A program made the translations under genes and the position numbers. From NCBI RefSeq assembly GCF_003334815.1, contig NZ_QOWO01000044.1: 29,333 nt of DNA; one strand, written 5' to 3'. The notes under the pieces are model-generated. The model had not been told where the DNA came from, did no database searches, and saw only the letters and a program-made list of their open reading frames with translations. Shown here piece after piece: positions 11,419-11,434 of this stretch. Each line of letters starts with the position of its first letter. The first letter of the stretch is position 1. Source of the DNA: Escherichia coli (GTDB lineage: Bacteria > Pseudomonadota > Gammaproteobacteria > Enterobacterales > Enterobacteriaceae).

Positions 11419-11434
11419 GGTGAATCGTTCAAGC
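11419..11434. promoter_or_regulatory. Candidate Cra (FruR) binding site upstream of ppsA
   Basis: GGTGAATCGTTCAAGC resembles the Cra box (approximately GCTGAAACGTTTCA) and lies about 90 bp upstream of the ppsA start, consistent with Cra activation of ppsA. Confidence 0.45.

Follow-up and report, generated by a model that had tools for sequence, protein, structure and literature searches.

The 16-base box at positions 11419-11434 of the window, a 29,333-nucleotide stretch of Escherichia coli DNA, is almost certainly the operator through which Cra (FruR) acts on the ppsA promoter. Its sequence is GGTGAATCGTTCAAGC on the plus strand, or GCTTGAACGATTCACC when taken on the ppsA sense strand; its promoter-proximal half is the strongly conserved half-site TGAATCG (11421-11427). 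The ppsA Cra site is already known in all respects: its sequence, binder, position and effect have been on record since the 1990s, and glycolytic-flux biosensors already employ the 16-mer as a portable element. The order-wide phylogenetic footprint reported here recovers the box, a 22- or 23-nt spacing to the -10 element and the published -45.5 geometry without experimental input. The box and the two genes that border its spacer are as follows.

11419-11434, minus strand: Cra (FruR) operator of the ppsA promoter, an almost certain assignment drawn from sequence, identity to the published OppsA, the 14-bp consensus and conservation.

8954-11332, minus strand: ppsA, phosphoenolpyruvate synthase, the regulated gene (open reading frame of 792 aa; NCBIfam models NF005057 and TIGR01418 above cut-off).

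11665-12498, plus strand: ppsR, PEP synthase regulatory kinase/phosphorylase, the divergent neighbour, given for context only (open reading frame of 277 aa; NF049928 above cut-off).

The ppsA product scores 1317 bits against NF005057 and PpsR scores 431 bits against NF049928, both far over the curated cut-offs. The ppsA/ppsR spacer spans 11333-11664 (332 bp) and has a GC content of 33.1% versus 49.6% for the whole window, in agreement with the 330-bp AT-rich region described in the first-pass annotation. The same annotation placed the site about 90 bp upstream of ppsA, and the box is measured at 87-102 bp from the ppsA ATG (11332, minus strand); all of its descriptive statements on the box and the spacer are correct. 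The spacer is 100% identical to that of E. coli K-12 MG1655 and is found at an identity of at least 95% in 5421 of 5426 complete E. coli genomes. A megablast search of E. coli genomes with a 66-bp query around the box returned no match, probably as a consequence of low-complexity masking or word size. The Rfam search found no RNA family within the spacer. Elsewhere in the window, two Rfam matches reach gathering level, the phenylalanine leader RF01859 (75 bits, 23372-23496, minus strand) and the enterobacterial sRNA STnc540, RF02082 (67 bits, 19373-19531, minus strand). Downstream of ppsR, the mechanically called aroH open reading frame (12532-13701) codes for 389 aa, and the AroH family model begins only at residue 42 (MNRTDELRTARI); the true aroH start is probably at 12655, which would leave a spacer of ~155 bp after ppsR for an aroH promoter.

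Conservation of the box was assessed across the Enterobacterales. A conserved 18-residue stretch of the PpsA N-terminus was back-translated and used as the search anchor, with one genome per species. The search returned 120 Enterobacterales loci, 108 of which were usable: the ppsA start can be recognised in them and 250 nt or more of sequence lies upstream. In 105 of these 108, it is the orthologous box that gives the best fit to the Cra consensus over the 330 nt upstream of the ATG, always in the same orientation and at 98-138 nt from the ATG, apart from two outliers at 161 and 231 nt. When the 105 sequences are aligned with MAFFT without anchoring on the box, positions 11434-11419 form the top-ranked 16-nt window of the spacer, with a mean identity to the E. 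coli base of 0.924 versus 0.464 for the spacer. In that unanchored alignment the promoter-proximal half, G-G/T-TGAATCG, is essentially fixed, at 0.9 or above. Variation is found mainly in the promoter-distal half, where the per-position counts show TTCAAGC, ATCAACC, TGTAAGC, TTAAAGC and TTCCACC. In the per-position counts, invariance at positions 3-9 is partly forced by the CGATTCA search anchor, and the unanchored alignment is the unbiased measure. A fixed proximal half and a variable distal half fit the known asymmetry of Cra operators, as expressed in the 14-bp consensus. The comparative evidence for the box is decisive.

Three of the 108 loci lack the orthologous box: those of Budvicia and Pragia, and the second ppsA copy of Cedecea colo. 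The Budvicia aquatica and Pragia fontium loci are without the TGAATCG core, and carry GCGGAAACGATTAAYC in the opposite orientation and at a different distance. The second ppsA-like copy in Cedecea colo (scaffold_0, locus L080) has a different N-terminus and is accompanied by neither a Cra box nor a divergent ppsR; the other copy in this species (locus L081) has both.

The conserved positions downstream of the box outline a putative ppsA promoter, with three predicted elements.

11388-11396, minus strand: predicted extended -10 element of the ppsA promoter, TG-c-AAAGAT, from conservation.

11381, minus strand: predicted ppsA transcription start, a G that is 0.8 conserved, with the conserved -7 T lying 7 nt upstream.

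11409-11418, minus strand: T-run, a putative weak -35 region between the box and the -10 element, GTTTTTTTCA on the minus strand, from sequence and position.

In the unanchored alignment, the minus-strand bases T11396, G11395, A11392 (-11) and T11388 (-7) are each conserved at 0.9 or above, and their neighbours vary. The TG would lie at -15/-14 and the hexamer (11393-11388) at -12 to -7. The resulting pattern, TGn-nAnnnT, is represented by TG-c-AAAGAT in E. coli, and in most other genera the hexamer is CAGGAT, CAGGCT or TAGTCT. TG..A...T is found 22 or 23 nt downstream of the box in all 105 sequences. The box-to-TG spacing is 22 nt in the Enterobacteriaceae and 23 nt in the Erwiniaceae, Yersiniaceae, Morganellaceae and Hafniaceae, a one-base difference at the family level with zero variation inside the groups. 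The spacer is anywhere between 219 and 520 bp long across the loci, against this near-constant distance between the box and the -10 element. These alignments indicate that selection has kept both the face of the box and its distance from the ppsA -10 element constant across the whole order.

The geometry of the promoter follows from the conserved positions. The box centre, 11426.5, lies 38.5 nt upstream of the conserved T11388; with this T taken as -7, the start would therefore be G11381, with a 49-nt leader up to the ATG, and the box would be centred at -45.5. The conservation geometry thus independently predicts a start near 11381, which would match the -45.5 position given in second-hand accounts of the original promoter work. 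Position 11381 corresponds to about 1,785,185 in MG1655, by an offset that agrees with the coordinate reported for the PdhR box. With the start so placed, the position of the box fits an activator site upstream of the -35 region. The -35 region contains no good match to TTGACA, and positions 11409-11418 are partly conserved in the Enterobacteriaceae and different in the other families; a weak -35 region of this kind would be expected of an activator-dependent promoter. A simple, generic sigma-70 scan called no minus-strand promoter within the spacer, and missed the ppsA promoter because its -35 region is a T-run without a good TTGACA match.

A further conserved segment lies at the end of the ppsA leader, before the ATG. 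Positions 11330-11349 (CACAAAAGGATTGTTCGATG on the minus strand) are conserved at 0.7-0.99 across the Enterobacterales, which exceeds the need of a Shine-Dalgarno sequence alone. Within it lies an A-rich GGA motif, a type of sequence that CsrA binds. A literature search for CsrA CLIP data on ppsA found none among the papers covered.

The ppsR gene is divergent from ppsA in 96 of the 98 Enterobacterales loci with enough upstream sequence, and its promoter must lie in the ppsA/ppsR spacer, as the first-pass annotation stated, since ppsR comes first among the genes on its strand. A single Cra box could in principle co-control ppsR as well, placing both the enzyme and its regulatory kinase/phosphorylase under one operator, and a plus-strand promoter-like site at 11536-11565, ~100 bp from the box, is compatible with such an arrangement. 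Co-control is nevertheless unlikely. The distance from the box to ppsR varies with the length of the spacer, whereas that to the ppsA -10 element does not, and the box is centred ~238 bp upstream of the ppsR ATG. Because its distance is fixed to the ppsA -10 element and free to ppsR, the box is tied to the ppsA promoter and not to that of ppsR. A literature search for a mapped ppsR promoter found none among the papers covered.

The ppsR side of the spacer contains its own conserved segment, a block at 11549-11580 that is conserved within the Enterobacteriaceae and overlaps the promoter-like site at 11536-11565. The ppsA-strand sequence of the block is AAAATGAA...TTTTATTTTTTATGAAA. The form found in Klebsiella, Citrobacter, Trabulsiella, Raoultella and others includes, in the part orthologous to window 11560-11580, TGAAACGCTATTTT, which formally fits the 14-bp Cra consensus; most taxa have TGAAATGG, without the CG core, and E. 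coli has the diverged TGAACCTT. This second Cra-like site, ~245 nt upstream of ppsA, was rejected as a general Cra site, given the form present in most taxa and its absence from E. coli. The block may be the ppsR promoter or the site of another regulator; that it represents a second, uncharacterised ppsR control element within the spacer is judged rather improbable. If it were a true Cra site, Cra would control ppsR in Klebsiella, Citrobacter and the other genera that carry it, with loss of this control in E. coli.

The operator at the ppsA promoter could also be read by a protein other than Cra. LacI/GalR operators share an AACG/CGTT-type centre, and the box has a right half that is degenerate as a Cra site, as might be expected if another regulator of the LacI/GalR family that shares the central CG-containing core were the main binder. 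There is, however, very little room for such a regulator, as both the published assignment and the functional use of the operator are for Cra. TGAATCG, the left half, is the half-site specific to Cra, and the fruB distal operator has an identical one. The literature, as relayed by later papers, reports both that a cra deletion loses ppsA regulation and that Cra footprints the site. The comparison with footprinted Cra sites that the first-pass annotation had proposed was run, and the 9-mer TGAATCGTT proves to be common to the box and the footprinted distal fruB operator.

Cra itself has a long record at this site. Ramseier 1993 and Negre 1998, known through the papers that cite them, reportedly describe Cra binding of the ppsA site, relieved by F1P or FBP. 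The box 16-mer is letter-for-letter identical to OppsA, ggtgaatcgttcaagc, which is listed as the ppsA Cra DNA-binding site (PMC9948231 Table S5) and has been used as a transplantable operator in Cra-dependent flux biosensors (PMC9948231). According to the summary of Negre 1998 in PMC7897506, FruR of E. coli acts on ppsA as a class I activator, has its operator centred at -45.5 from the start, and strengthens DNA binding by the alpha C-terminal domain of RNA polymerase. The same summary states that FruR strongly stimulates ppsA transcription in vitro, where it is not essential, and that F1P interferes with FruR binding at ppsA (PMC7897506 citing Negre 1998). The earlier suggestion that the site fits the known activation of ppsA by Cra is thus upheld by identity of the 16-mer to OppsA (PMC9948231) and by class I activation from -45.5, as summarised in PMC7897506. 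A ppsA promoter whose site was scrambled and a cra deletion have served as controls (PMC5555440), and ppsA promoter activity is largely explained by FBP (PMC5293157). A full-text literature search for the 12-mer on both strands returned unrelated papers only.

A PdhR box is also present at this locus. The sequence AGTTGGTTATACCAAAG (11286-11302) lies inside the ppsA coding sequence, at codons ~10-16, and thus outside the spacer. It was reported by genomic SELEX for the ppsA/ppsR region as an 11/14 match, and ppsA mRNA is down more than 2-fold in a pdhR mutant (PMC7660256).

Matching to Cra consensus sequences contributes less to the identification. The 14-bp asymmetric Cra consensus is RSTGAAWCSNTHHW (PMC5829826), and GGTGAATCGTTCAA of the box fits it at 14 of 14 positions, the sole perfect match in the 29.3-kb window. 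The number of perfect RSTGAAWCSNTHHW matches expected by chance is 0.27 per window, with at least one in 24 of 100 shuffles; by our own arithmetic, scaling this value to the 332-bp spacer gives an expectation of ~0.003. With one mismatch allowed, six matches to the 14-bp consensus are found in the window versus 6.4 expected. The symmetric Cra motif obtained from ChIP-exo and RegPrecise is gcTGAAtCGaTTCAgc (PMC5888115), and the box agrees with this palindrome at 12 of 16 positions, the left half being perfect and the right half degenerate. A search of the window with the palindromic GCTGAATCGATTCAGC, allowing up to 3 mismatches, missed the ppsA box, which has 4.

An intragenic site at 27909-27924 passes the same palindromic search and fits the 16-mer better than the ppsA box does. 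That this site outscores the ppsA operator on the palindrome shows the consensus to be a weak predictor. The near-matches at 3481, 25139, 25225, 27119 and 27909 were rejected as chance occurrences, their frequency being that expected by chance, and those at 25139, 25225 and 27909 sit within long open reading frames. The frames that contain 25139-25152, 25225-25238 and 27909-27924 are one of 470 aa and one of 642 aa. From the pattern alone, the assignment of the box to Cra would be weak; it is conservation and identity to the published operator, not the pattern match, that place the box above chance. That the box is a functionless chance resemblance to the Cra consensus might be entertained, given that about a quarter of shuffled windows (24%) yield a perfect match and that near-matches also occur within genes, but this is contradicted by the conservation data: across the whole order, no other element of the fast-evolving spacer is as well conserved as the box, which keeps a fixed spacing to the -10 element. 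The box is also identical to an experimentally used operator, so that the probability left to chance is negligible.

The literature describes the following mode of action for the Cra operator of ppsA. At low glycolytic flux, when fructose-1-phosphate and fructose-1,6-bisphosphate are scarce, Cra, a member of the LacI/GalR family, binds the ppsA operator. Cra bound at -45.5 then improves DNA binding by the alpha C-terminal domain of RNA polymerase, a class I activation, according to the second-hand descriptions of this promoter. Under glycolytic flux, the effectors free Cra from the operator and ppsA expression drops.

The box can be compared with four known systems. First, it is the same element as the E. 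coli K-12 ppsA operator (Ramseier 1993; Negre 1998; OppsA, PMC9948231), with the 16-mer, its context and the -45.5 centre all equal, so far as later papers relay the original descriptions. Second, it resembles the fruB distal operator O2 (GGCTGAATCGTTTCAA), a Cra repressor site, in that the two share the 9-mer and the binding protein. However, the fruB operators repress the fru operon as a cooperatively bound pair, whereas the ppsA box is a single activating site upstream of the -35 region, with a more degenerate right half (CAAGC). Third, class I CRP-dependent promoters such as lac P1 likewise use an upstream activator that aids binding of the alpha C-terminal domain, although the lac P1 class relies on the CRP/FNR family and ppsA on the LacI/GalR family. 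Class I CRP sites are located at -61.5 or further upstream, and the -45.5 position at ppsA is unusual by comparison. Fourth, Vibrio cholerae FruR at the fru promoter is an orthologous regulator that is also an activator (PMC7897506). VcFruR binds between the -35 and -10 elements, needs F1P and acts by a MerR-like distortion mechanism (PMC7897506). In contrast, at ppsA the E. coli protein Cra occupies -45.5, and F1P counteracts its binding, according to the summary in PMC7897506.
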